DNA from: Octopus vulgaris
Lineage: Eukaryota
Assembly (NCBI GenBank): GCA_951406725.2
Contig: OX597833.1
Span: 18,972,001-19,036,000, forward strand
Direction: 5' to 3'
Length of the DNA: 64,000 bases
In this document: one piece after another, positions 2,330-57,180 of the stretch
Position numbering within the stretch: position 1 is the first letter of the stretch
Layout: every line of letters starts with the position of its first letter
Translations under genes and position numbers: made by a program
The notes under the pieces: model-generated
Told to the model about the DNA's origin: nothing
Seen by the model: the letters and a program-made list of their open reading frames with translations, nothing else
Database searches by the model: none

Positions 2330-3387
2330 TTGTTTTATGTTTCAGTCATGTGACTGTGGCCTTGCTGGGGCATGTACTATATATATATATATCTTTTCTT
2401 CTCTTTTACTCCTTTAGCTGTTTCAGTCATGTTACTGTGGCCATGCTGGAGCAACGCCTTTTAGTCAAGCACCTGAGCACTGTATACAATAATTTCATTA
2501 TTAGTATTATTATCATTAATATATAAATCGACCCCAGGACTTATTCTTTGTAAGCCTAGTACTTATTCTATCGGTCTCTTTTGCTGAACCACTAATTTAC
2601 GAGGATGCAAACACACCAGCACTGGTTGTCGAGCGATGTTGGGGGGACAAACACAGATACATAAATATATATATACATATATACGATGCGCTTCTTTCAG
2701 TTTCCGTCTACCAAATCCACACCCAAGGATTTTGGTCAGCCCGAGGCTATAGTAGAAGACACTTGCCCAAAGTGCCAAACAGTGGGAATGAACCTAGAAC
2801 ATTGTGGTTTGTAAGCAAGCTATTTACCACACAGCCACTCTTATGCCTATATATGTATTCTTTTCTGCTCTAGGCACAAGGCCCGGAATTTTTGGGGGAG
2901 GGGGGCAGTCAATTAGATTGACCCCAGGATGCTACTGGTACTTAATTAATGGATGAAAGGCAAAGTTGACCTCAGCGGAATTTGATGACTTATATATGTA
3001 TTTATGTATATATGTATATATTTTTTTATTCTTTTACTGTTTTAGTCATTTGACTGTGGCCATGCTGAAGCACTGCCTTTAGTTAAACAAATTGACCCCA
3101 GGACCTATTCTTTGTAAGCCCAGTACTTATTCTATCAGCTTCTGTTGCTGAACTGCTAGATCACAGGGATGTAAATGATGGTGGGAGGGGGACACAAACA
3201 CAGACACACAAATACATACATACATATATATATATATGTTTGAACCCTTGAACCTTCTAGAATCTTCTACATTCAACCATTGTCACTGCTTATAACAGAA
3301 TATTTTAAAGAAACACTCATTATCGCTATGGGCTCCGTGTGGGCAGTCATCTAAAAGTTTTTTTGTGCATCTTGATGCTGACATAAG

Positions 3388-3491
3388 TTCCTTACTTTTC
3401 CTGATGAGAAGGCGGCATAATGCACCCCTTATTCCTTCGAAATTAGGAATATGAAGCCTTCGAAACATACGTCGAAAATAAAATAAAGGAA
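3388..3491 (+). ncRNA. Type I hammerhead ribozyme in a short TA-flanked repeat element
   Basis: Stem I ttttc(3396-3400)/gaaaa(3474-3478), CTGATGA 3401-3407, stem II gaaggc(3408-3413)/gccttc(3456-3461), GAAAC 3462-3466, loop atac, GTC 3471-3473. Distal stem I ttcctt/aaggaa. Confidence 0.8.
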
Positions 3492-3754
3492 TTTTGTTAA
3501 TTCGTCGTTCAACTCCGTTCTTTCATTTATTTGTATTTAAAAAAATACATACATATATATATATAAGTAGATAAATGAATTATCTTATTACGGATAATTC
3601 GAGAGATAACCGATACCTGGGTAGCAAACTCACAACAGAAAGAACGCGGTTGAAATTACGACCATAGGGCATATACTCTGTGCCTTAGTGCGGAAATTTG
3701 AAGTTTAATAGTATAAGTATAGGAAAGAATGGAGCTGAACGAAGATTTAACAAA

Positions 3755-3861
3755 ATTCCTTTATTTTATTTTCGACATATGTTTCGAAGTCTGCAAAATC
3801 CCTAATTCCGAATGAATAAGGAGTCCATTATGCAGCTTTCTCTTCAGGAAATTCCAGGAAC
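3755..3861 (-). ncRNA. Second type I hammerhead ribozyme (diverged paralogue, opposite strand)
   Basis: Minus strand: tttc, CTGAAGA (3847-3841), bulged stem II gaaagctgca/tgcagacttc, GAAAC (3785-3781), palindromic loop atat, GTC (3776-3774), gaaa. Confidence 0.72.
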
Positions 3862-3942
3862 TTCTTTAGCCAACAAAACGCACAAGTTTTTAGATGACTG
3901 CTCATGAGGAGCCCATAGCGATAATGATAAATAATGTCTATA

Positions 3943-3985
<43 letters not shown>

Positions 3986-3988
<3 letters not shown>

Positions 3989-4296
3989 CATGATCACCGT
4001 GACCGACCAGGCCATCAGATGTTGTTACACATCGCTGGTCACAATGCGCTTCGCATTGTTTTAGCCTTCAAATGACGCCACCCCACTGGCTAAGCGAGCA
4101 GGCCAACAGAAGAAAGAGTGAGAGAAAGTTGTGGCGAAAGAGTACAGCAGGGATCGCCACCACCCCCTGCCGGAGCCTCGTGGAGCTTTAGGTGTTTTTG
4201 CTCAATAAACACTCACAACGCCCAGTCTGTGAATCAAAACCGCAATCCTACGACCGCGAGTCCGCTGCCCTAACCACTAGGCCATTGCGCCTCCAC
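3986..4296 (-). mobile_element. tRNA-derived SINE family D; related copies at 23150-23330(+), 25200-25380(-), 47520-47780(+), 49080-49300(-)
   Basis: tRNA-like head ggcgcaatggcctagtggttagggcagcggactcgcggtcgtaggattgcggttttgattc on the minus strand, flanked by (TA)n. Confidence 0.8.
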
Positions 4297-4910
4297 ATAT
4301 ATATATATATATATATATGGTGGGCTTCTTTCAGTTTCCATCTACCAAATCCACTCACAATGCTTTGGTCAGCCTGAGGCTATAGCAGAAGACCCTTTCC
4401 CAAGGTGCCATGCAGTGGGACTGAACCTGGAACCATGTGGTTGGGAAGCAAGCTTCTTGCCATACAGCCACTCCTGTACCTAGATATTCTTTTTTTTTTC
4501 TTTTTACTTGTTTCACTCAGTTGACTGTGGCCATGCTGGTGTACTGCCTCAAAGGGTTTTAATTGAACAATCAACCCTAGGACTTTATTTTTAAAGACTA
4601 ATACTTATTCTATCAGTAAACACATCAACATGGGTTGACAAGCAGGGGTGGGGGACAAACAAAGACACACACACACACAGACACACACATGTTTTATCTT
4701 TTATTTGTTTCAGTCAGTAGATTGTGGCCATGCTAGAGCACTGCCTTGAATTTTTAGTTGATTCTATTGATCCCAGTATTTATTTTTTTAAAGCCTGGTA
4801 CTTATTCTATGGAACCAAGAAGTTAAGGGGATGTAAACACACCAACACTAGTTATCAAGGGGTGATGGGGGACAAGTACTGACACAAAGACAAACACATA
4901 TATTTACATA

Positions 4911-5345
4911 TATGAGGTGGTACCCAAAAGTAACTGGAAATGTTCTCTCTGGGACAAGCCTGTTGCAGTTCAGGTTTTGGTTGCTAGAACCCACTTGATG
5001 TAATCCTCAAGCATCAGTCTGCCAACCAGCAGCATCAAGTGATATCGTACTTCCATGTGGTGCGCCTTTGTTTTGCTGTGCTCCCCCCCTGTTCATTAAT
5101 TTTTCTGATGGCTGAAACGAAGGAACAGTGTGCTTCTGTAAAATTTTGTTTTCTGCTGGAGAAAACAGTGGCAATAACAGTTGTCATTCTTCAATCAGCT
5201 TACAAGGATGCTGTCATGAGCAAAACACAAGTTTACAAGTGGTTTTCCTGCTTTAGGAATGGTCACTTGTCATCTGAAGACCAATCTTGTTTGGGGTGAC
5301 CGTCAACTTCCTGAACAAATGAAAACATCACGAAAATTCATGTAG
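4911..5345 (+). mobile_element. Mariner 5' remnant (transposase HTH pseudogene)
   Basis: MAETKEQCASVKFCFLLEKT...AYKDAVMSKTQVYKWFSCFRNG...ED is a mariner N-terminal DNA-binding region. Premature stop at 5299. Confidence 0.85.
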
Positions 5346-12057: not shown

Positions 12058-12600
12058 TAGGTGCATTCCAGAAGTTTTGAGACTTTTTCAAGATAGAATT
12101 TCATTAATCAATAAAGAAGTATAAAACCCTAATATTTTCGAAAGTGGACCCTCTGACTTCAGTACACTTCTTGTAGTTCTCCAGCCACTTCATGAAGGCT
12201 CCATGCAAGTCCTCCTAAGGGAAAGTGTCCAGGACCCGTGTTACAGCCTTCTTCATCTTTTCCTTTAGCTTGGGGAACAACCAAAATTCACAGAAAACAA
12301 GATCTAGACTATAGAGAGGGTGAGGGGCAGTTTTGTTGCCCATCTCTGTCATGTGGTTGGTTACCAAGACGGAATTGTGGACTAGTGCATTGTCCTGGTA
12401 CAGGTGCTCTGGCGTTTTGCAATGAAATCTCTTCCTAAACTCCCTCAAAACTCCCACAAAGTACTCCTTGTTGACCGCTTGTCCATCGGGAACCCATTTG
12501 ATACAGAGAATGTCCTTGCTGTTGAAAAAGGGGATATTATGAGCTTTCTAGTAGACTTGCTTTGCGCCAGTGCTCAGCTCATACAAGTTAATCTATGACC
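12058..12600 (-). mobile_element. Mariner transposase catalytic-domain remnant
   Basis: QDNA..H...PHPLYSLDLVFCEFWLFPKLK is a degenerate HDNA and YSPDLAP.DF.LF motif pair. Confidence 0.85.
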
Positions 12601-31355: not shown

Positions 31356-34300
31356 TCAGTGTTCATGTATAGAAAAATTTAGTGGTGGTATGGGAAATGA
31401 AGAATGACTAGGTCCATGGAAACCAGAGGGCGTGACCGTACTGTTGATAGCTTGTGCCACAGGACCCCTTGGTTCAAAGCCATGAGGGTTGTGACTTAAG
31501 ATACTGTTAATACTCATGTTGTGAATAACAGGAGGCGGTGGTGGATGACTACGATTATGGTAGAGGGCACCACCCTGGTGATGATGTTGTAGTGAGTTGG
31601 GGTCAATACTAGCCTGAGGGGGAGGGAGAATAGAATTGGTTGGGAACTTGATTGGAGAGATATTCAGTGCTTCATTCTGAGATGTACTGTTCACATCAGA
31701 AAAAATATTCCCCAGACCAAGACTGGGCACGTGTGGTAAATTAGGCATAGCACTGGAATGAGGTGGAATCTGTGGGGTATTTGTAGGACCATTATGGACA
31801 GTGTTCATTCCGAAACCTGTTTGAAAGTTTAAACCAATACCATTTTGAGAGCGTGAAGGTGGGAATATGGAATTAAAAGATGTACTGATATCACTGCTTT
31901 TCAAAACAGTTGAAGAAGTATTTGGAATTTGTCTTGTAGAAGAAGTGAACAGATTACTAGAAAGAAATGTTGGGGTGTCTCCTTGAATGGTACGGGGTGG
32001 TGGGGGAGATGTGTTGTTAATTGGAAAGTAAAGGGCCATATTTTGATCAAAAATTGATTGAGACAGGTTGGAATCTACTTCAGATAAAGACTGCTTATTT
32101 TTTTTGCTCTGAGACTGTTTAGTCCGTGAAGTTTGTTTTGTAGAGCGCTGCTGTTGATGCTGTGGTTGTTGTTGTTGTGGTTGGTGTTGCTGTTGTTGTT
32201 GGTGTTGCTGTTGTTGTTGTTGCTGTTGTGATGCATGTGATGGTTGTGGTGGAGGATTAGACTGAGGGAGTGTTAATGTAGCGTTGTTATCAGATATAGA
32301 ACTAGGAGTGCTCTGATGTGAGGAGAGGCTGCCCTGACTCAGTTGGCTCTGCGACAGAGACAACGTCTGCTGAGAAGCCTGTTGCTTAGCAGCTTTGCTA
32401 ACCGTATTTTGCTGTTGAGAAGAAGTAGATTTACTAATCTCTGGATTAATATTTACATTTTGTGACACAGTAGCAGCATCCCTTTGGCTGTGAAATAATA
32501 ACTGATTGCTGTCAAATCTACTATTAAATACAGGAGTGCTTGACCCAAAGTTAGATATTGACGTAGGGAGATTTGCATTAAAAGACCTACTAATATTAGC
32601 TCGGGAATTCTCATTAGAAGTTACGGGGGGGTGATGCAGAGGTGGTGTATGTAAAGACTGATAGTTCATAGGGGAGAAATAAGTTGATACACTACTCGTG
32701 ATTTGTGAAGAACAATCGACAGAGTTCAAACTAGATTGTTGGTTTCGATTGCTCAAAGAAATACTCTGTGAAATATTTGGTAAATGTTTCTGGTTTGAAA
32801 CAGTTCTGGAGCCATCATTTGACTGTGAAATCGTGTTCGACGAAGACTTTTCCAAATTTATTGTGTTTAATGATATATTGGAGCCATCTGTATAAGGCTG
32901 GCTTCTGGATATTGAACACGTTTCTAAAGAGTTACTCAAACCAAAATTGAAAGTATTGTGTGATTGTAAATGACTTGATGCCGTGGAGGAAGATGACGAT
33001 GAGCCACAGATAATGTTTTGTTCATTAGAAGTATTTTGATGCGGAATATTTGATTCTGTTTCATTATTGTTCTTCTGGTTATTCAGACCAAATGATGGTA
33101 GCCCAAATGTTTGTGATTGCTGGTTGCTACTGCTTTCATTGTTTTCGCCATGTAAAAGCTGTGGTGTGACTAGTGAATGCAAATGCAGGAAAGGGAAATG
33201 ATGGGAGGGAAATAAACTAGTGTTGTTGGAGTTTGGTAAAGAAAAAGTGAATGATGTTGACGAATTACAAACTGAACTGTCTGTGAAGGTATTAGATGGA
33301 ACAGTTGGAGTCAAAGTCAAACCGAGGTTGGCAAAGTTTAAAGCGTCACTTTCGCTGGTAGCAATATGATGTGTATTGTTAGAAGAAAAAGCACTTCCAG
33401 AAGAATAACTGGTTTTGTCAACCCGGGAATTATCATTTCTGCCTGAATGTACAAAATTCTCGGCAGAATAAATGCTTAAGTTGCGTGACTTTGATGATGG
33501 AAGAGTTCCTGCAACTGACACTGCGTCACCTGCAATGCTATTAGAAATAATATTGCTTGAATCTTGAGGAATTAGGGTTTGGTTGAGGGGCTGTGGGTGA
33601 GATTTTGGTGGTGCTGTATTTAATTTGGTTGAAGTGTTAAACAGTGATTCAGCAGAATACCTCAAAGAATTTGGTGAGGAGTAATTATTTTGTTCTGAAG
33701 TGCAAGGGGAAGCAATTTGAGCAGATGAATTGCTAATAACGTTCTGGCTGACCGAAGAATTGGTTTCCGGTTCAACAGCCGTGGATATATTTGATATTGG
33801 GGAAGGCATAGACACAGGAGATAAACTAGGTTGTGCTATATGCTGAGATTGCCTGCTGTAAGAGTGTTGCTGGGATCGAGGTAAGGACATAGAGCCAACA
33901 GAAACACTCTGAGAACCAGCATTTAACTGCCTGTTTGAATAGGTATTTTTGGGCAAAATATTGTCTTCATTTGACGTAGGTTGAGAATTACAGGCGAGCT
34001 GAAGTGACTTCTGCTGATCAATAATAGAATTTGATCGTGAGCGGTTGTTCTTGCTGTTGCCATTATTACTGCTTATACAGTTACTGCTGGTAGCACCAGT
34101 ACTCGTAGGAGATAGTCGGCTACTAAGCCTATTGTTCTGGTTGTGTGAGTGAATAGATGTCGAACAGGCCATTTCTGTTGGAGACGACTGTGTCTTTTCA
34201 ATCATCTTTCCAGGATAAGATGCAACAACCTGAGAGCTATTTGGTTGGCAAAAAGTTTTAGAAGAATCAATAGCTCTAAATGATTTGATTGGTTCTGATT

Positions 34301-37300
34301 CCTCTAAAGCCAGAGTTATGTCATAGGGGTCATAATTGACACTCTTTTCACATGTATTTTCTCCATTAGAGCCAGAAGGAGATTCATCAGTACTAGAAGG
34401 TGTGTAATTTGACACTGTTTTAGTAACTGTCGTAGAATCTGGGGAGAGCAATTCAGAAGGATTCTCTTCTGCATTCATTGAACTTTCACAGACGGAAGAA
34501 TTTATTTTAATTTCTTCAACTTCAATTAAGGATTCTTTAATCTGAGGCTTTTTCTTTTTGTTCATAACCAAATGATCAGAATCCAAGTCAGTGCAGTTTG
34601 ATTTACCTTTGCGCTTCTTGTTCTTTTTTTGATCGTTTTCATTGGCCCAGGTATTCCTTAAGTTTTCCACCTGGTCTAATACATCACTTATCTCACTTTC
34701 CGTAAAAACAATCTCATCAGGAATGTCAACTGATGGAGTTTGCTTTTTAACAGGCACTTTTAAAGTTTTTTTGACAAGTTCTTTGTTAAGAGCTTTTTGC
34801 TTTTTCTTCTCCATACTTACTGATTCAACTTGTTCGAGGACACCAGGAAACTGGTTTGAAGCGAAATTAATAGCTTCAGATATAGCTATAGAAACTGGCT
34901 TTTTTGTTAGCTTTTTGCTATCAGGTAATTTTTTGAAATCTTTTTTCATTTTCTCTTTTTCTGGTTCAATAATCTTAGATTTTAAATTACCGCGCTTGCT
35001 TACTGCCCCAATAGACTCACATATATCTGATTCTTTGAAAAATGTTGATGTAGATGGAGACGACACAGTCAAGTTACTACATGCATTATCCAAAGAATGT
35101 GTACTCTGAGTTTCAACCTCCATCTCTATTCGGCTTGATGTTGGAATATGATCGCTATCACAACTTTCTTTCGAAGGTGACTGTGCACTACAATCATCTT
35201 CAGTCTCTCCAGCACTCGTGTCTATATGCAGAGGATTATCTTCATTAGCCGGATTATAAAAACTACTTATCGGAGGAGATATGTCTTGTAAAGAAGAAGA
35301 AAATATGGACTCTGCAGCTTTTGCCAGAATATCTGTGGTACCAGTATTTTCTGAAGTATTAGAAGTTGAAGGTGATTGTATAATTGTTGATTCAGCAGTA
35401 GTAGACACACAAATATCATTTGTGCTGACTACGTTTTGCATAGTTGTACTAGAAGCCTCTTGATCGGAGCTCAGTGGAGTGGTGTTCCAGAGAGTTGAAG
35501 ACACAGAAACCTGTGTAGAACTTACTGAGTTGGAACTATTCATGGAACACACGGAAGGTAATGGATTTGTTTGATTGGCTTTAGGGGGTTTGGGTACAAT
35601 TGTTCTCTGAGAATTTTTTTTGTTATTTTTCTTACTCGAAACTGTAGGATTAGTTGAAGATATTGTAGTTGGAATGGTGGAAATTGCTGGCAGAGAAGGT
35701 TGCTGATTTGAGATATTTCCAAGTCCTTGCATAGAATTAGGGTTTAAAATACAACACGTCTGCTGTCCACCAGGTGGACCAAATGTAATTAGAATAGTCC
35801 CGTTTGGTCCGTTAGTTTGTCCTGACTGATTCACAGGTAAAGAACTTTGAAGATTTGTTGGCAAAGATGAAGTTACAGAAGAGTCAGTCTGCGAAGGCAC
35901 TGTTCCCACGGCTGTCTGCAAATTAGTCTGAGACACGTTCCCAAGAAGTATGCTGTTGTCAGGTGTGGATGTATTCGATGTTCTAAACTGCATTAACGAA
36001 CCTGTTGTGGTGGACATCACCACACCTTTTGAATCAGATGTTTGCGTTTCGGACCTTTTCACAAATGCAGGAGCACTTGTTGGCCGATGCATTTGAGAAG
36101 CTTGCACTTGAGTTGTCATGACACTCTGTGTCGCCGACGTTGTAACCATATTATTGTTGATGGAAGCCACAGTGGTAGCAGCATTAGACACTGGGAAATT
36201 CGATATGGTTGTTGTCATGAGGAGACCCATTGGAGGCTTTTGTTGACTCTGAACAAGGGCAGACTGATTCTGACACTGCACATTCGGAGGGTTTAGTATA
36301 GTAGTCAAATTAGAGTCAATAATCGGTATGTTATTGTTACCCAAATTTCCAACAACTGCTAGTTTAGCAGGAATTTGTGATGGATGTATAGCTTGGGTTT
36401 GAGCAGCGACAGCGGCTTGGAGCTGACAATTAGCATTTAACAATTGCTGCTGGATTTGTTGTTGTTGTAGTTGCTGCTGTAATAAGACCTGTGGTTGTGT
36501 AACCACAGGAATGATGTGTCCATTGGGTAAAATAAGTGCTGTTGGTAACTGATTTGGTTGACTGGGAACTGTATTCAGAGTAAGTAAGTTTCCATTTTGA
36601 CTAACAGGCAAGACAAGACCTGGATTGGGATTTAAAAAGTTAGTATTTGCACTTGCATAAGGAGCCGACAGCATTTGCTGCTGCTGAGCACTCAACTGAT
36701 TGTTCATTTGTGCCTGTTGAATCACAGAATTTGTGGCACCTAGCGATATTGTCTGCTGAGCAGGCTGAAATGCTAGCTGCTGCATTGCCGGAGCTTGATT
36801 GGAAGCCAATGCCTGAGCATTGATGGTGTTTTGAAGAGTAATGCCTTGCTGTGTTGCCTGTTGTTGATTCTGAACAGGGAGGGTAGCTGCATGATTTAGT
36901 ACCTCTGTGTTGTTTATCACATTAGTCAGTGCCATCTTTGTTTGGTCCACTGCATGGCCCAGCTTCTGGGTAGCAACTTTATCATTAGAAAACTGCCGTG
37001 AGTTGTTTGTTAGCGCTAAAGTTGTTGGGTCAACGACCATTTGATAGTTGGGCATCAAAGAAAGTCCACTATGGTCATTAACCAAAACGATCTGTCCTTG
37101 ACCTGTTTGAAGACCTTGTATCCCTCCAATCCCTGGCAGAGCACCACCAACAGGTAACGACTGGTTGGCAGCATTCATAATTGGCACGTTAATTAGTGCA
37201 TTACCATTTTGTAGAATTTGGTTATAATTTGACTGTCCAATCGACATGATTGGTACCTGTGTATTTATAGCTTGGGTTGTGTTGGTAATTGTGTTCGAAC

Positions 37301-38137
37301 CCTGCTGGAAACAATTATTTCCACTGAAAAACGAAGAGTTCATAAAACCAGTGTTTATACACTGGTTATTTGAAACTACTGAAGCTAGAGTCTGCTGGGG
37401 TGTTGGTTGCTGTCCTTGTGAAGAATCGGCAGAAATCATAGTTTCAGCATTTGTACTCGCTATGGAGCTAATCATAGCTTGTTGTGCCTGAGATGTAATC
37501 TGGGGCAATTGGGGAGGTGTTATAAATGACTGAGTGACTGAAGTAATACCCGCATCTCTCATTGCAATCTGTAACAGTCCAGAGCCATCACTGTTTCCTT
37601 TCTCGGAATTATTTGCAAGAAGATTAGAAGATGGTGAAACAAAGGCAACACTTGGCTGTGTAGAAGATCCTTGTAAATTGACAAAACTACCAGCAGAATT
37701 TGCATTGCTGAAAATAACTTGCCCTTGTGCATTCGAGGCAAGAATGGCATTTGAAAGAGAAGTATTTAACAAATTAGGAGCAGCTGCAAATATCTGCTGC
37801 TGATTAATTCCAGCAGGTAAGATATTAGTGGCTTGCATGCCATTAAAATTATTAAGGCTAGGCATAAGAATACTTCCAGAATTCATTTTTGTAATGGTTT
37901 CTTGTGCCAACTTGGCTATCTGCTTTTTGTTAGCTATACTTTCGAGTTGAGAATGTATTGTATTAGGTCTTTTGGATTTTGAGCTTTTAGTAGCGCCCTC
38001 TGTGTCTTTATCTTTTTTCGACGATGCCTGCAGGACATTTGAGGTTGTATCTGCTGATTCAGGTCTGCTGTCTGAAGAATTAGAAGTGCTGTCCACCTTT
38101 CTACCTTTCCACGAGGAGTTCAGTAGAGATGAGATAC
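31356..38137 (-). CDS. USF3: USF3-like giant terminal coding exon (6782 nt; Q/S/N/T-rich disordered region with polyQ)
   Basis: Acceptor tttcaccag| before 38137, in phase with the previous exon. It reads GISSLLNSSWKGRKVDSTS... straight into the 2246-aa ORF (31356..38096) and ends at TGA. WKG, TDILAKAAESIF and YSAESL motifs resemble recalled USF3 motifs. Confidence 0.93.
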
Positions 38138-38340
38138 CTGGTGAAATAGATTTGAAACAAAGATTTAAAAAATACTTTTGCTAAATAATGTGAACAAGAC
38201 TAGAAATAAATTCAGGTATTCATTAATGTGAAAAAAAAAAAAAAAGGTGTAATACTTCTTTTATTATAACATACCAGAACAGTTAAAAAAACAAGTGTAA
38301 TGAGTCATTACAGAAATATCATAGTAATAATATCTATTAA

Positions 38341-40924: not shown

Positions 40925-41008
40925 CAGCAGTTTTTATTAAATCTGTCAAACGATCCCGCTGAGATTTAATATTATCCAATTCTTGCCTTAAAGAATGAAT
41001 TTCTTCAG
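40925..41008 (-). CDS. USF3: USF3-like exon: leucine zipper (TEEIHSLRQELDNIKSQRDRLTDLIKTA-G)
   Basis: Acceptor ttacag|, donor G|GTAAGT, 84 nt, phase 1 to 1. Heptad pattern similar to recalled USF3 AEEIKKLRKQLEEI. Confidence 0.92.
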
Positions 41009-44219: not shown

Positions 44220-46740
44220 TCATCATCATCATCGTCGTTTAGCGTCCGTTTTCCATGCTAGCATGGGTTGGACGGTTCTACTGGGGTCTGTGAAGCCAGA
44301 AGGCTTCATCAGGCCCAGTCAAATCTGGCAGTGTTTCTACGGCTGGATGCCCTTCCTAACGCCAACCACTCCGTGAGTGTAGTGGGTGCTTTTTACATGC
44401 CACCCGCACAGGTGCCAGACAGAGCTGGCAAACGGCCACGAACGGATGGTGCTTTTTATGTGCCACCGGCACAAGGGCCAGGCGAGGCTGGCAACGGACA
44501 CGAAACGGGGCGGTGCTGGCAACGGTCGCGAAACGGAAGGTTCTCTTACATGCCACCGGCACTGGTAACACATCTGCAATTTCCATTGATCGATTTCCAT
44601 TCTGATCCTCACTTGCCTCAACGGGTCTTCACAAGTAGAGTTTCGACATGCCACCAGCACTGGTAACACATCTGCAATTTCCATTGATCGATTTCCATTT
44701 CTGATCCTCACTTGCCTCAACGGGTCTTCACAAGTAGAGTATCGACATGCCACCGGCACTGGTAACACATCTGCAATTTCCATTGATCGATTTCGATTCT
44801 GATCCTCACTTGCCTCAACAGGTCTTCACAAGTAGAGTTTTGTGTCCCAAGAAGGGAAGGTATGCATACGTAGGCTGGCTCCATCCCAAGTAGAAGGCCA
44901 CGGGTTATGGACTCACTTGTCCTGCCGGGTCTTCTCGCGCACAGCACACTTCCAGAGGACTCGGTCTCTAGTCATTTCCTCAGTGAGACCTAAAGTTCGA
45001 AGGTCGTGCTTCACCACCTCGTCCCAGGTTTTCCTGGGTTTGCCTCTTCCACAGGTTCCCTCAACCGCTAGGGTGTGGCACTTTTTCACACAACTATCTT
45101 CATCCATTCTCGCCACATGACCATAGCGCAATCGTCTCTCTTGCACACCACAACTGATGCTTCTTAGGTCCAGCTTTTCTCTCAAGGTACTTACACTCTG
45201 TCGATTATGAACACTGACATTACACATCCATCGGAGCATACTGGCTTCATTTCTTGCGAGCTTACGCATATCCTCAGCAGTCACGGCCCATGTTTCACTG
45301 CCATGTAGCATGGCTGTTCGTACACACGCATCATACAGTCTGCCTTTCACTCTGTGCGAGAGGCCTTTTGTCACCAGCAGAGGTAAGAGCTCTCTGAACT
45401 TTGCCCAAGCTATTCTTACTCTAGCAGTTACACTTTCAGCACACCCGCCCCCGCTGCTGACTTGGTCACCTAGGTAACGGAAACTATCAACTATTTCTAG
45501 TTTTTCTCCCTGGAAAGTGACGGAAGTTGGTCTCAGAGCATTTTCAGTGTTTATTGTTCCTGAGCATCTGCCACATACAAAAACCATCTTCCTAGTTAGC
45601 CTTCCTTTGACATTGCTGCACCTCTTATGTGTCCATAGCTTACACTTGGTGCATCTTATAGAGTTTCTACCTACACCTTTTCTACAGATCGAGCAGGGCC
45701 ATCTACCTGAAGGCGTTTGTGATTTGTCTACCTTCCTACTGATTACGACTTTGGTTTTAGCTAGATTGACTCTGAGGCCCTTCGATTCTAATCCTTGTTT
45801 CCACACCTGAAACTTCTCCTCCAGTTCTGATAGCGACTCAGCAATTAGAGCAAGGTCATCAGCATAGAGGAGCTCCCAAGGGCATCCTGTCTTGAATTCC
45901 TCCGTTATTGCCTGGAGGACTATGATAAATAGGAGGGGGCTGAGTACTGAGCCTTGATGGACCCCTACCTCTACCCAGAATTCTTCACTGTACTCGTTTC
46001 CAACCCTCACCCTACTAGCAGCGTCCCTATACATGGCCTGCACAGCTCTCACTAACCATGGGATCGGGGGACCCTGTCGAAGGCTTTCTCCATGTCAACA
46101 AAAGCCAGGTACAGGGGCTTATCTTTGGCTAGGTATTTCTCCTGCAGCTGCCTTACCAGGAATATAGCATCAGTAGTACTTTTCCCTGGCACAAACCCAA
46201 ACTGCATCTCATCTAAACTAACTCTCTCTCTAATTAGCTGGGCTATGACCATCTCCGTAACCTTCATTGCCTGATCCAACAGCTTGATACCTCTGTAGTT
46301 ATTTGTATCTAGGGCGTCACCTTTACCTTTGTAGCAGTTGACTATTATGCTGCTACACCAGTCATTGGGTATGACTCCTTTGTGTATCACCTGATTAACT
46401 ATATGGGTGACTAGGCTATAGCCGACACTACCAGACATTTTGAGCATCTCTGCAGTGATTCCTGATGGGCCTGGGGCTTTTCCTGTCTTCATGCTTCTAA
46501 TTGCCTTAGCTACCACGGAACTATCAACTCGGATAGCTGGTCCCTCTGTTGGGTCAACATTCGGCAGACTCTCTTTATCCCATTCATTTTCTTTATTCAG
46601 CAAACTTTCATAGTGGCATCTCCAAACCTCTCTCTTTGCATCCTCATTTAGCGCAAGTGAACCATCTTCCATGCGAACACACTTCTCTCCTACCACATCA
46701 CGATTCTCTCTCACACACTGTCTTGCAACGCGAAACACCT
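44220..46740 (-). mobile_element. 5'-truncated RTE-clade LINE: RT pseudogene with PHD-type insert, tandem-repeat 3' UTR and (GAT)n tail
   Basis: KAPGPSG, NYRGIKLL, QFGF, FVDMEKAFDRV, GVHQGSVLSPLLF, LLYADDL, FRYLG. Deletion and frameshift at about 46055; stop at 44913. Confidence 0.95.
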
Positions 46741-47368
46741 TGAAATGGTCTTCAAAATTTGAAACAAAGCAAGCCCACAGCACAAAAAAAAAAGAAAAGA
46801 GTGAGTGTACTCTGCTAAACGTGTAATGAATGCTGGAGCTGTGCTGGTATGCACATATGATATATATGAACAATAACCATTGGGTGAAGAAAGGCTTAGC
46901 AATTTTAGTGAAGGAAACCTGCTGAAGAAGAAGCCATGAGGTGTGGCAAAAGTTGATCTCAGGATACTGAATTTCATGGGAACAACAAGGGACTGCAACA
47001 AATGGCAAGGCTCTGTGCAGGAGGAAACTTGTTCAATCCATGTAAGCAAGGGGGAAAAAAAAGGGACATAAAATGCAGATGAAATAAAAATACTAGGCTT
47101 TGATTACATCTTCATTGACTAAGTTAAAAATCAAATTAAGGTGGCGAGCTGGCAGAATCATTAGCACACCAGGCAAAATGCTTCGCAGCATTTCGTCCAT
47201 CTTTAAGTTCTGAGTTCAAATGCTGCCGAGGTCAACTTTGCCTTTCATCCTTTTGGGACCAGTAAAGTAAGCACCAGTTGAGCACTGGGGTCAATGCAAT
47301 CGACTTGTTCCTTCCCCCAAATTTGCTGGCCTTGTGCCAAAATTTGAAATCAAATTTATTATACTTAC

Positions 47369-55140: not shown

Positions 55141-57180
55141 TATATATACATATATATATATTAATTGCTGGCAAGGACACAGTATTTCATTTTGCAACCA
55201 TAATATACTACCAAGTATATTTACAAGTTTACAACTCAATATTGTGTCTTATTCTGTGTTAGCAGTGTGATATTCTCATTTTAAAGTTTATCTACAGAAT
55301 TCAGAACCAGCACAGCAAGTCACAGTGTTTCATCATCATCATCATCGTTTAATGTCCGCTTTCCATGCTGGCATGGGTTGGACGATTGACTGAGGATGGG
55401 TGAACCAGATGGCTGCACCAGGCTCAAATCTTGATCTGGCAGTTTCTACAGCAGGATGCCCTTCCTAAAGCCAACCACTCCGAGAGTGTAGTGGGTGTTT
55501 TTACGTGCCATCGATACGAGGACCAGTCAGGCGGTACTGGCAACGACCTCACTCAAATGTTTTTTCATGTGCCAGTAAGGCGACGCTGGTAACGATCACG
55601 CTCGAATGGTGCTTTTTACGTGCCACCAGCATGGAATCCAGTTAGCCGCATAAACGAAAATGTGTATGCTTACATAGACATCAAAGATTTCTATCTTAGA
55701 TCACATTGTTTACATTGGCTTACCAGCTGCTGTCTAACTGTCCAACCCATGTTAGTATGGAAATGAAAGTTAAATGATAATGATGATGATGACGATAACG
55801 TCATTAATGGATACCTGCTGCTGATGAGGTGCAAAGAACGCTGAAACCATGTGATACAGCAGTTCCACAACAAATGCAGGACAGTTCTTCCTCAAAGTCC
55901 ATCTCTTGACCACATCGTGGTGGGAAGGTTAAAGGAGTGAGTGTCAGAGCTATGCCATCAAGGACTTTGAGTCCCTGGTAGGACCACCAAAGGCGGACAG
56001 GTCTGGCAGTGGCGGCACCAGGGCAGCAACCCAGCTCACTGGAGGACAATGGTGAGTTTCAGGCAGCATCTGTTCTGGAATCCATTGGCTTCCTGGTGGC
56101 CCTGGATCACATCTGCAGGCATCCTGCAGCAAGAAGGCATAACACAAGGATGACCTGCCACCAGGTGTGTATGGTGGCTTACAAATACAGATGGGAACTG
56201 TTTTCACAGACTCTGCTCATCCTTTGAAACTCCTATGAACTCACCTGTGATGCAGTGAACTGAATAGGAGCTGGCTTAAGCCCTCTCAGGTGAATGCCAT
56301 TACAACAACAATACTGGACAGTTCCCATCTGTTACTGCTATTTCTGCGCTTCTGTGTGTTAAACATCTATGCGAGAGACTTTCTCAGGACAAATGCTGCA
56401 GCATTATGGCATTCCAATAAAGTAGGATATAAAGACTGTCACCCAGTAATAATCCTTTCTACTATAGGTACAGGCCTGAAATTTGGGGTAAGGGATAGTC
56501 GACTACATTGACCACAGTACTTGACTGATACTTATTTTATTGACCCTAGAAAGGATGAAAAGTAAAGTTGACCTCGGCAGAATTTGAACTCAGAACGTAA
56601 AGATGGATGAAATACCACTACGCATTTTGCCCGGTGTACTAACAATTCTGCCAGCTCATGCCTTAATAATAATAGTAATAATAATGAATATGATAATAAT
56701 ATAATCCTTTCTACCAAAGGCACAAGAACTGAAATTTTGGGGGTGGGGAACACTCAATTACAATGACCCCAATGTTTCACTGGTAACTTAGTTTGTCAAC
56801 CCCGTTGAACTCAGAACATAAAGATGGACAAAATACTGCTAAGTATTTTGTCTGGCGAGCTAACGGTTCTGCCAGCTTGCCACCTTTTAAACAGTATGTA
56901 TGGGATGGCACTAGTGGTTTCAAGGTTAGGAAGAGCTTAGCAGTAAGATTCAGTCTAAACGAAGTAACCACACAGCTAAACCCACACACGCATTCAGTAA
57001 TGATGCAACCTCCATCGCTAATATCTGACATAAGTTAGTTTGTTTCAAGCACATAAAGTCATTAGGCTGGAGTTTATTTTCGTTTCTGGAGTGTAGAAGC
57101 AATTGGGAGTACAGGACAGGATGCCTGTCTGCCAGTTAGCCACAATGTTATGCCCAGCTACTGCTGGAACTTGCTTTTAA

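Follow-up and report, generated by a model that had tools for sequence, protein, structure and literature searches.

A tail-to-tail pair of decayed hammerhead-ribozyme repeats in a TA microsatellite of Octopus vulgaris, probably truncated ends of Penelope-like retroelements

Our analysis of a 64,000-nucleotide stretch of Octopus vulgaris DNA (the window) reveals a tail-to-tail pair of repeats, copy A on the forward strand and copy B on the reverse strand, with their 3′ ends facing inward across TA sequence and with TA repeats flanking both. The hammerhead motifs of copies A and B are genuine and of type I, as in Penelope elements and retrozymes, and the repeat to which they belong is very abundant in related contigs. 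The two copies themselves are likely inert. We consider it probable that A and B are 5′-truncated pLTR 3′ ends of Penelope-like retroelements (PLEs), inserted separately into one TA microsatellite.

Hammerhead motifs and layout of the locus

An earlier note on this DNA had described a diverged inverted pair of hammerheads, and the cores, GAAA segments and GUC triplets of both were located (Table 1); A 3317–3535 aligns with B 3927–3712 at 80.5% identity over 220 nt. The architecture proposed there is likewise present in full: a 2-bp stem III, a long, hairpin-bearing loop II, a distal stem I past an A-rich bulge, and TA flanks. In particular, core CUGANGA, GAAA and NUH occur in this order in A and in B, and in both copies three helices, open at helix I, close the core. 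Those of B are weakened, with stem II reduced to three contiguous pairs at its base and proximal stem I to four.

Table 1. Features of copies A and B and of their flanks (window coordinates; in RNA motifs, U stands for T)
Feature	Position	Strand	Remarks
Left copy of 21-bp duplication flanking A (microsatellite)	3216–3236	.	possible target-site duplication
Copy A	3238–3544	+	short 3′ end class, likely 5′-truncated
Candidate decayed last codons of parent ORF	3239–3308	+	stop 3306–3308; from translation, a lead only
Block where A/B similarity begins	3317–3358	+	36/42 identical; 4-bp hairpin
Hammerhead A	3385–3494	+	core match, pairing, Rfam Hammerhead_1 match
A distal stem I	3385–3393/3486–3494	+	9 bp
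A proximal stem I	3396–3400/3474–3478	+	
A core CUGAUGA	3401–3407	+	
A helix II	3408–3417/3452–3461	+	inner hairpin about 3426–3448
A GAAA	3462–3465	+	followed by 2-bp helix III
A GUC	ending 3473	+	predicted cut after 3473
Right copy of 21-bp duplication	3545–3565	.	TA spacer separating the two 3′ ends
Copy B	3568–3945	-	long 3′ end class, rarer upstream variant
B 3′ extension	3576–3711	-	no counterpart in A; 30-codon frame from ATG 3672; highly represented in contigs
Terminal hairpin of B extension	3577–3600	-	8 bp; ~100 nt after the ATG
Hammerhead B	3753–3863	-	stems I and II with mismatches
B GUC	ending 3774	-	predicted cut after 3774; helix III/loop palindromic
B GAAA	3785–3782	-	
B core CUGAAGA	3847–3841	-	
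(TA)20 tract	3945–3984	.	on the 5′ side of B

A descriptor search of both strands of the 64 kb (stem I of at least 4 bp, stem II of at least 3 bp, stem III of at least 2 bp) returned A and B as its only two matches which, being copies of one sequence, are not independent. Dinucleotide shuffles gave one match in 4 of 150 cases and two matches in 0 of 150, and a stricter descriptor that fits A matched none of 150 shuffles. The earlier note had proposed a check with Rfam Hammerhead_1 (RF00163), which succeeded in that both motifs were matched with the whole core aligned, at 3395–3479 (24.3 bits, E 4.2e-4) and at 3852–3768 (22.4 bits, E 1.8e-3), and fell short in that neither score reaches the gathering threshold of 34 bits and the matches appear only with chosen 151-nt stretches as query. 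With 1.6 kb, 64 kb or 311 nt as query, Rfam did not list a hammerhead. The 45-position model does not cover the long insert in helix II.

Further candidates were rejected. A site at 55821 (+), with CUGAUGA and GAAA under a loose descriptor, lacks helix III and is within chance, 6 of 150 shuffles giving one such match. A gapped hammerhead pattern found in at least 121 metagenome stretches is attributed to chance, since none of the distinct matches listed has a stem I of at least 4 bp; 120 metagenome pattern loci gave no blastn match to A or B at E 0.01. Strict motifs numbered zero in viral contigs and zero in prokaryote genomes.

The similarity between A and B starts sharply at 3317 (A) and 3927 (B), upstream of which the sequences differ. 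The 5′ side of A extends ~80 nt beyond that of B, and the 3′ side of B extends ~140 nt beyond that of A (to about 3570). Copy A sits within the tail of one SINE-like repeat, and the left-hand 21-bp copy forms the tail of a neighbouring repeat that is abundant and occurs many times in the window; the duplication around A is of low complexity, and slippage could also have produced it. The locus looks like two decayed insertions, and the 64-kb window holds no third copy of the A/B repeat.

SINE-like repeats of 200–330 bp with microsatellite tails, 70–88% alike, are abundant window-wide (e.g. 2525–2860, 3000–3237 and 4294–4490). A short inverted match, AGTA...TACT, next to TA tracts, bounds B (3560–3575 and 3936–3952) and could be a target palindrome or a small terminal inversion. 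Tc1/mariner remnants lie at 4988–5296 (+) and 12218–12547 (-), recognized by a Mos1-type HTH (E 7.5e-7) and by a weak match to DDE_3. An Rfam Vault RNA match at 56894–56987 (-), with 40.6 bits against a gathering score of 34, may be a true gene or repeat-derived. A bHLH gene at 31359–51688 (-) comprises a 6.8-kb exon (31359–38180; 2,274 open codons) and, upstream of it, small exons near 41000, 47400 and 51600. The best eight named matches of the large exon are all from molluscs (abalone, freshwater mussels, chiton, limpet, scallop, oyster and Gigantopelta), at ~32–54% local identity, none of them bearing a cephalopod name. The gene thus points to a molluscan host without confirming the cephalopod of the earlier note, which the flanking SINE-like repeats make plausible. 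The only RT in the window, that of a retroelement at 44916–47032 (-), apparently lies within an intron of this gene, 41 kb from the pair; it has two open frames, and a weak PHD/C1-like match follows the RT. Of the 303 ORFs with 55 or more codons in the window, the 300 searched with Pfam contain no Penelope-type domain, and neither do 18 longer ones.

The repeat family in related contigs

Related contigs numbered 4,298 from four sequencing runs (1,663, 2,405, 103 and 127), those of less than 80% likeness being left out. The runs, coded as organisms A and B, may represent related species. X1 and X4 are DNA runs; X11 and X13 are taken as RNA by guess only. Of 24 runs listed, 18 contain one fifth or more of the sampled words, under five coded organism labels. 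Summed contig depth, which is no copy number, reaches 4–7 × 10^5 over the hammerhead in two DNA runs, versus tens for single listed contigs. The contigs suggest thousands of copies of the A/B repeat. They bear out the claim that a type I hammerhead of the Penelope/retrozyme kind resides in a multi-copy repeat, the copies of which end in TA repeats.

Summed depth in X1 rises along A from 3,339 (3226–3250) through 49,580 and 236,966 to 623,872 (3501–3525), and then falls to 66,912 and to 0. We read this profile as that of copies which share one 3′ end and start at varying 5′ positions, the gradient being in part a mapping effect (A is decayed at 3250–3300). Loose ends at 3282, 3305 and 3307 have homologous sequence upstream. 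One contig aligns to A from 3238 with 22 additional upstream letters, and another aligns to B up to 3941 with 33 additional upstream letters; these extra letters could be flank. At 3728, the equivalent of the 3′ end of A, five X1 contigs go into (TA)n and two X13 contigs continue into the B extension. Two 3′ end classes are therefore recognized, because contigs at this position either end in (TA)n or run on.

Copy B is bridged by contigs at 3598–3769, 3613–3743, 3625–3739 and 3800–3941. Its upstream part is the rarer one, the summed depth at 3901–3950 being more than 100-fold below that over the hammerhead of A (X1, X4), and its terminal part at 3601–3625 is abundant in contigs. The proposal of at least two subfamilies is upheld, in that at least two upstream variants occur and the 5′ end of B is common to a much rarer set of contigs than that of A. 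In X4, a contig connects 3634 with 3476 across 30 intervening letters, a joint of uncertain direction that we read, with uncertainty, as the same terminal module close behind the hammerhead of another subfamily. At 3576–3650 the stem of the terminal hairpin is mostly kept and the loop differs among loose ends of three runs; this segment is possibly a module common to several subfamilies. Candidate unit lengths range from 229 to 378 nt, with a GC content of 35–37%, which falls within the 150–450 bp and under 50% GC expected of non-LTR retrozymes.

The earlier suggestion that the stems stay pairable in spite of sequence differences does not hold for this pair. Among 38 pairs compared between A and B, none is changed on both sides, one is changed on one side, and eight are broken in one copy. 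Paired cells amount to 89.5%, versus 31–53% for slid partners, a comparison biased by the structure having been drawn from the same two sequences. Core identity between A and B is 17/19 which, with two copies, is indistinguishable from the 80% background. Specifically, the related contigs carry another letter than A at 3454 and 3470 (91–100% of summed depth), and another letter than B at 3852 (about 100% of depth) and 3790 (61–98% of depth); this variant evidence comprises 40 of 126 rows, and the variants are unphased. In our reading, the majority letters at 3454, 3470, 3852 and 3790 would restore one base pair in helix II, the palindrome of helix III, one base pair in helix I and another in helix II, respectively. 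Because no pair is changed on both sides and the related contigs mostly restore the broken pairs, we read the differences between A and B as decay and not covariation.

The family ribozyme modelled from these contigs appears better formed than either copy in the window. Its helix II has ~10 bp and runs on into the inner hairpin, and its helix I consists of a 5-bp proximal part, an A-rich internal loop (5 nt shorter in 11–59% of related-contig depth) and a 9-bp distal part. Helix III is palindromic in B and in nearly all related contigs, A departing from the palindrome at 3470. Local folding z-scores of the hammerhead regions in the window are only −1.9 and −1.1.

The hammerhead fold lies above the minimum-energy fold by 4.5 kcal/mol in A and by 5.7 kcal/mol in B, and in the minimum-energy fold the GAAA side and the cleavage side are held together in a short hairpin. 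Self-dimerization through helix III is calculated at −7.0 kcal/mol for the palindrome of B and at −2.1 kcal/mol for A. Since the hammerhead fold is not the minimum-energy fold and the palindrome of B pairs with itself, cleavage is predicted to need a dimer or protein help, and A is predicted to be less likely to cut than B. Because A and B lie on opposite strands, no transcript from this locus holds two sense hammerheads, and a cis-dimer of A with B is ruled out.

Origin of the pair

If A and B are truncated pLTR ends, as we think probable, the RT/GIY-YIG protein of the parent element would nick AT-rich or (TA)n DNA, and reverse transcription would begin inside the pLTR RNA, downstream of the hammerhead. 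The start site would be located either ~60 nt past the cut (A class) or at a hairpin ~200 nt past the cut (B class), and an early stop of reverse transcription would leave the ribozyme-bearing end alone. As (TA)n is identical on both strands, a second insertion could then take place either way round. Cleavage of the parent RNA after GUC would require that the hammerhead dimerize via its palindromic helix III or receive protein help, the monomer being predicted to adopt an inactive fold. Two insertion events are favoured because the 3′ ends face inward and the upstream parts differ, whereas the inversion that a PLE undergoes in one event is at the 5′ end; a single inverted insertion was rejected on these grounds, the copies moreover being 80% alike.

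Several parts of such a parent may be recognizable. Upstream of the shared sequence, the translation of A 3239–3308, which is short and frameshifted, may resemble a GIY-YIG C-terminus, and related contigs have a 6-nt insertion behind 3281, within this candidate ORF end. A peptide search with one frame of the 5′ part of A, other than the candidate ORF-end frame, gave no match. The block at 3317–3358, behind which the next spacer is identical at 14 of 26 positions, may be an internal promoter or transcription start; it presumably fits Inr/DPE-type promoter motifs, a fit judged by eye. Penelope has an internal promoter of the Inr/DPE type (PMC2377424). The extension of B may contain the start of an ORF and, by analogy with the Poseidon model (PMC11167929), the start site of reverse transcription. 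In its 30-codon frame, a common variant at 3664 (X11) creates a stop, a variant at 3671 removes the ATG, and other variants keep the frame; peptide searches with this frame gave no match, a weak result given that repeats are often masked or fragmented. Against the origin from truncated pLTRs, the window yielded no RT/GIY-YIG ORF linked to the pair, the two 3′ classes differ by ~140 nt, versus a 30–40-bp PLE tail, the similarity starts sharply at 3317/3927, and B measured from 3927 to 3576 is of retrozyme size (352 nt, 37% GC, with a 7-nt word common to both ends).

Some of these features would suit dispersed monomers of a short, non-autonomous, PLE-dependent element of about 230–370 nt, consisting of promoter block, hammerhead and 3′ hairpin, of retrozyme-like origin and copied into (TA)n by a helper PLE, with circles possible but not required. 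We regard this as a somewhat unlikely but serious possibility. Besides the sharp start of similarity at the conserved block and the size and composition of the B unit, the lack of protein matches in the peptide searches and the very high abundance of the repeat speak for it, as does the published view that retrozymes derive from pLTRs and that solo monomers are numerous among them (Li et al. 2026 preprint). It is opposed by the 80 further family bases that A has upstream of the block and the still longer extensions of other contigs, by the presence of two 3′ end classes, and by circular folds no better than those of shuffled sequences. The earlier view of a non-autonomous family may hold, but the 5′-truncated ends of a longer element fit at least as well. 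In its most specific form, which we hold tentatively and think unlikely, the repeat would be a non-autonomous mini-element of ~350 nt of molluscs, probably octopus, made up solely of the promoter block of a pLTR, a hammerhead of unusual build and a priming hairpin at the terminus, spread over thousands of TA microsatellites, and with its 3′ hairpin module swapped between subfamilies. The hammerhead of this mini-element would have an extended helix II, a variable A-rich helix I loop, and an off-fold released by dimerization or protein. Truncated pLTR ends and a non-autonomous derivative grade into each other (Li et al. 2026).

The earlier note had gone further and proposed retrozymes that produce small circular RNAs. 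A true tandem family of non-LTR retrozymes of this sort, with A and B as stray monomers, is in our estimate improbable, even though size and GC fit (PMC7229834; mussel retrozymes measure 350–390 bp) and helix III is palindromic in B and nearly all related contigs. The locus contains no same-orientation tandem of hammerhead units, and with its copies on opposite strands it offers no excisable unit. No compact circular fold was found: four unit boundaries gave z of +0.20 to +0.49, with 31–42 of 60 shuffles as good, and the linear fold of B has a z of +0.78, the copies being decayed. Nor was there a clear head-to-tail joint among the 14 joints listed (five opposite-strand joints and two skips, and seven more), in a search that skipped repeats at 3534–3580 in X1, that used contigs, which drop rare forms, and that listed part of the loose ends; in particular, no listed joint clearly links the 3′ end of B (~3576) to 3317/3927, or the end of A to its start. 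One X11 contig (depth 2.18) joins 3641 to 3237, an ambiguous joint whose direction is not given and which is either a TA flank or head-to-tail.

Still less probable is a regulatory pair adopted by the host and selected at this locus, acting by ribozyme cut or as long double-stranded RNA. A read-through RNA over A and B does fold into a duplex of ~185 long-range pairs, but this duplex buries the whole core, A and B have lost pairs that related contigs keep, and the nearest host exon found is ~28 kb off. Chance resemblance to a hammerhead, for which the sub-threshold Rfam scores, the modest folding z-scores and a core identity close to background in only two copies might be cited, is negligible in probability given that no shuffle matches the stricter descriptor fitting A and that stems I and II, like the palindrome, are better formed with the majority letters of the related contigs.

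Comparison with known systems

In endonuclease-bearing PLEs, the pLTRs contain hammerheads of type I whose helix II is long, helix I short and helix III small and palindromic; these are mostly single, probably from truncated PLEs, and opposite-strand pairs 100–700 bp apart have been reported (Cervera and de la Pena 2014, PMC4209133). A and B share with them the type I topology and the G10.1–C11.1 pair. Specifically, they resemble the variant of fly, rotifer, shrimp and mosquito, with a helix II longer than canonical, a short proximal helix I and a small palindromic helix III. They differ in having no unpaired base between A9 and helix II, where the min-HHR consensus has one (PMC4209133). Unlike the hammerheads described in the available part of that paper, A and B have a helix II of ~10 bp with an inner hairpin, and a 9-bp distal helix I past an A-rich loop.

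A molluscan counterpart, with the only cephalopod hammerhead in the literature searched, is Hydra-1_Obim of Octopus bimaculoides, a PLE that, like A and B, prefers (TA)n (Craig et al. 2021, PMC8557442); octopus PLEs in general are described as favouring (TA)n (PMC8557442 supplement). Hydra-1_Obim also resembles A and B in its type I hammerhead near the 3′ end, at a distance of ~100 nt; A and B end about 60 and 200 nt after the cut. The hammerhead and 3′ sequence of Hydra-1_Obim, compared by eye, differ from those of A and B. Eight short DNA motifs and one peptide motif from the window gave no match in the available supplement of PMC8557442, in which line breaks can hide a match; the octopus Naiad consensi (Craig 2021) were compared by motif search, not by alignment. 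The repeat annotation of O. vulgaris comprises 31 recently active Penelope-like families, with ribozymes absent from the available main text (PMC13282606). The A/B sequence was not found in the text of the papers searched; Repbase, Dfam and several supplements could list the family.

Animal non-LTR retrozymes are, like A and B, short low-GC repeats with a type I hammerhead and with solo monomers common (PMC7229834; bioRxiv 10.64898/2026.07.22.740005), and an origin from pLTRs has been proposed for them (Cervera and de la Pena 2020, PMC7229834; Li, Clavereau and Pollet 2026). Their defining marks are tandem units in the same orientation and compact, highly self-paired circles (PMC7229834), neither of which is seen for A and B.

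The two-start model of Poseidon PAc of Anolis serves as a template for the two 3′ end classes of A and B. PAc inserts into AT-rich targets, and its reverse transcription starts at two stem-loop sites downstream of the hammerhead. Cleavage by this hammerhead needs protein, and in vitro, insertion does not require cleavage (Frangieh et al. 2024, PMC11167929). The PAc start sites are 30–40 bp apart, whereas the ends of A and B lie ~140 nt apart, and the PAc ORF starts inside helix II, whereas the candidate ATG of B lies ~100 nt after the cut. PLEs also tend to insert into or adjoining earlier copies (PMC6765202).

Pairs of hammerheads on opposite strands are already in print, as is an octopus element that targets TA and bears a hammerhead, and the present repeat adds a very abundant molluscan hammerhead family to the known association of hammerheads with Penelope-like elements. 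Thousands of copies with a long helix II would make good material for analyses of covariation and of monomer versus dimer cleavage. The mini-element, if real, would be a compact natural substrate for the role of the hammerhead in Penelope retrotransposition.
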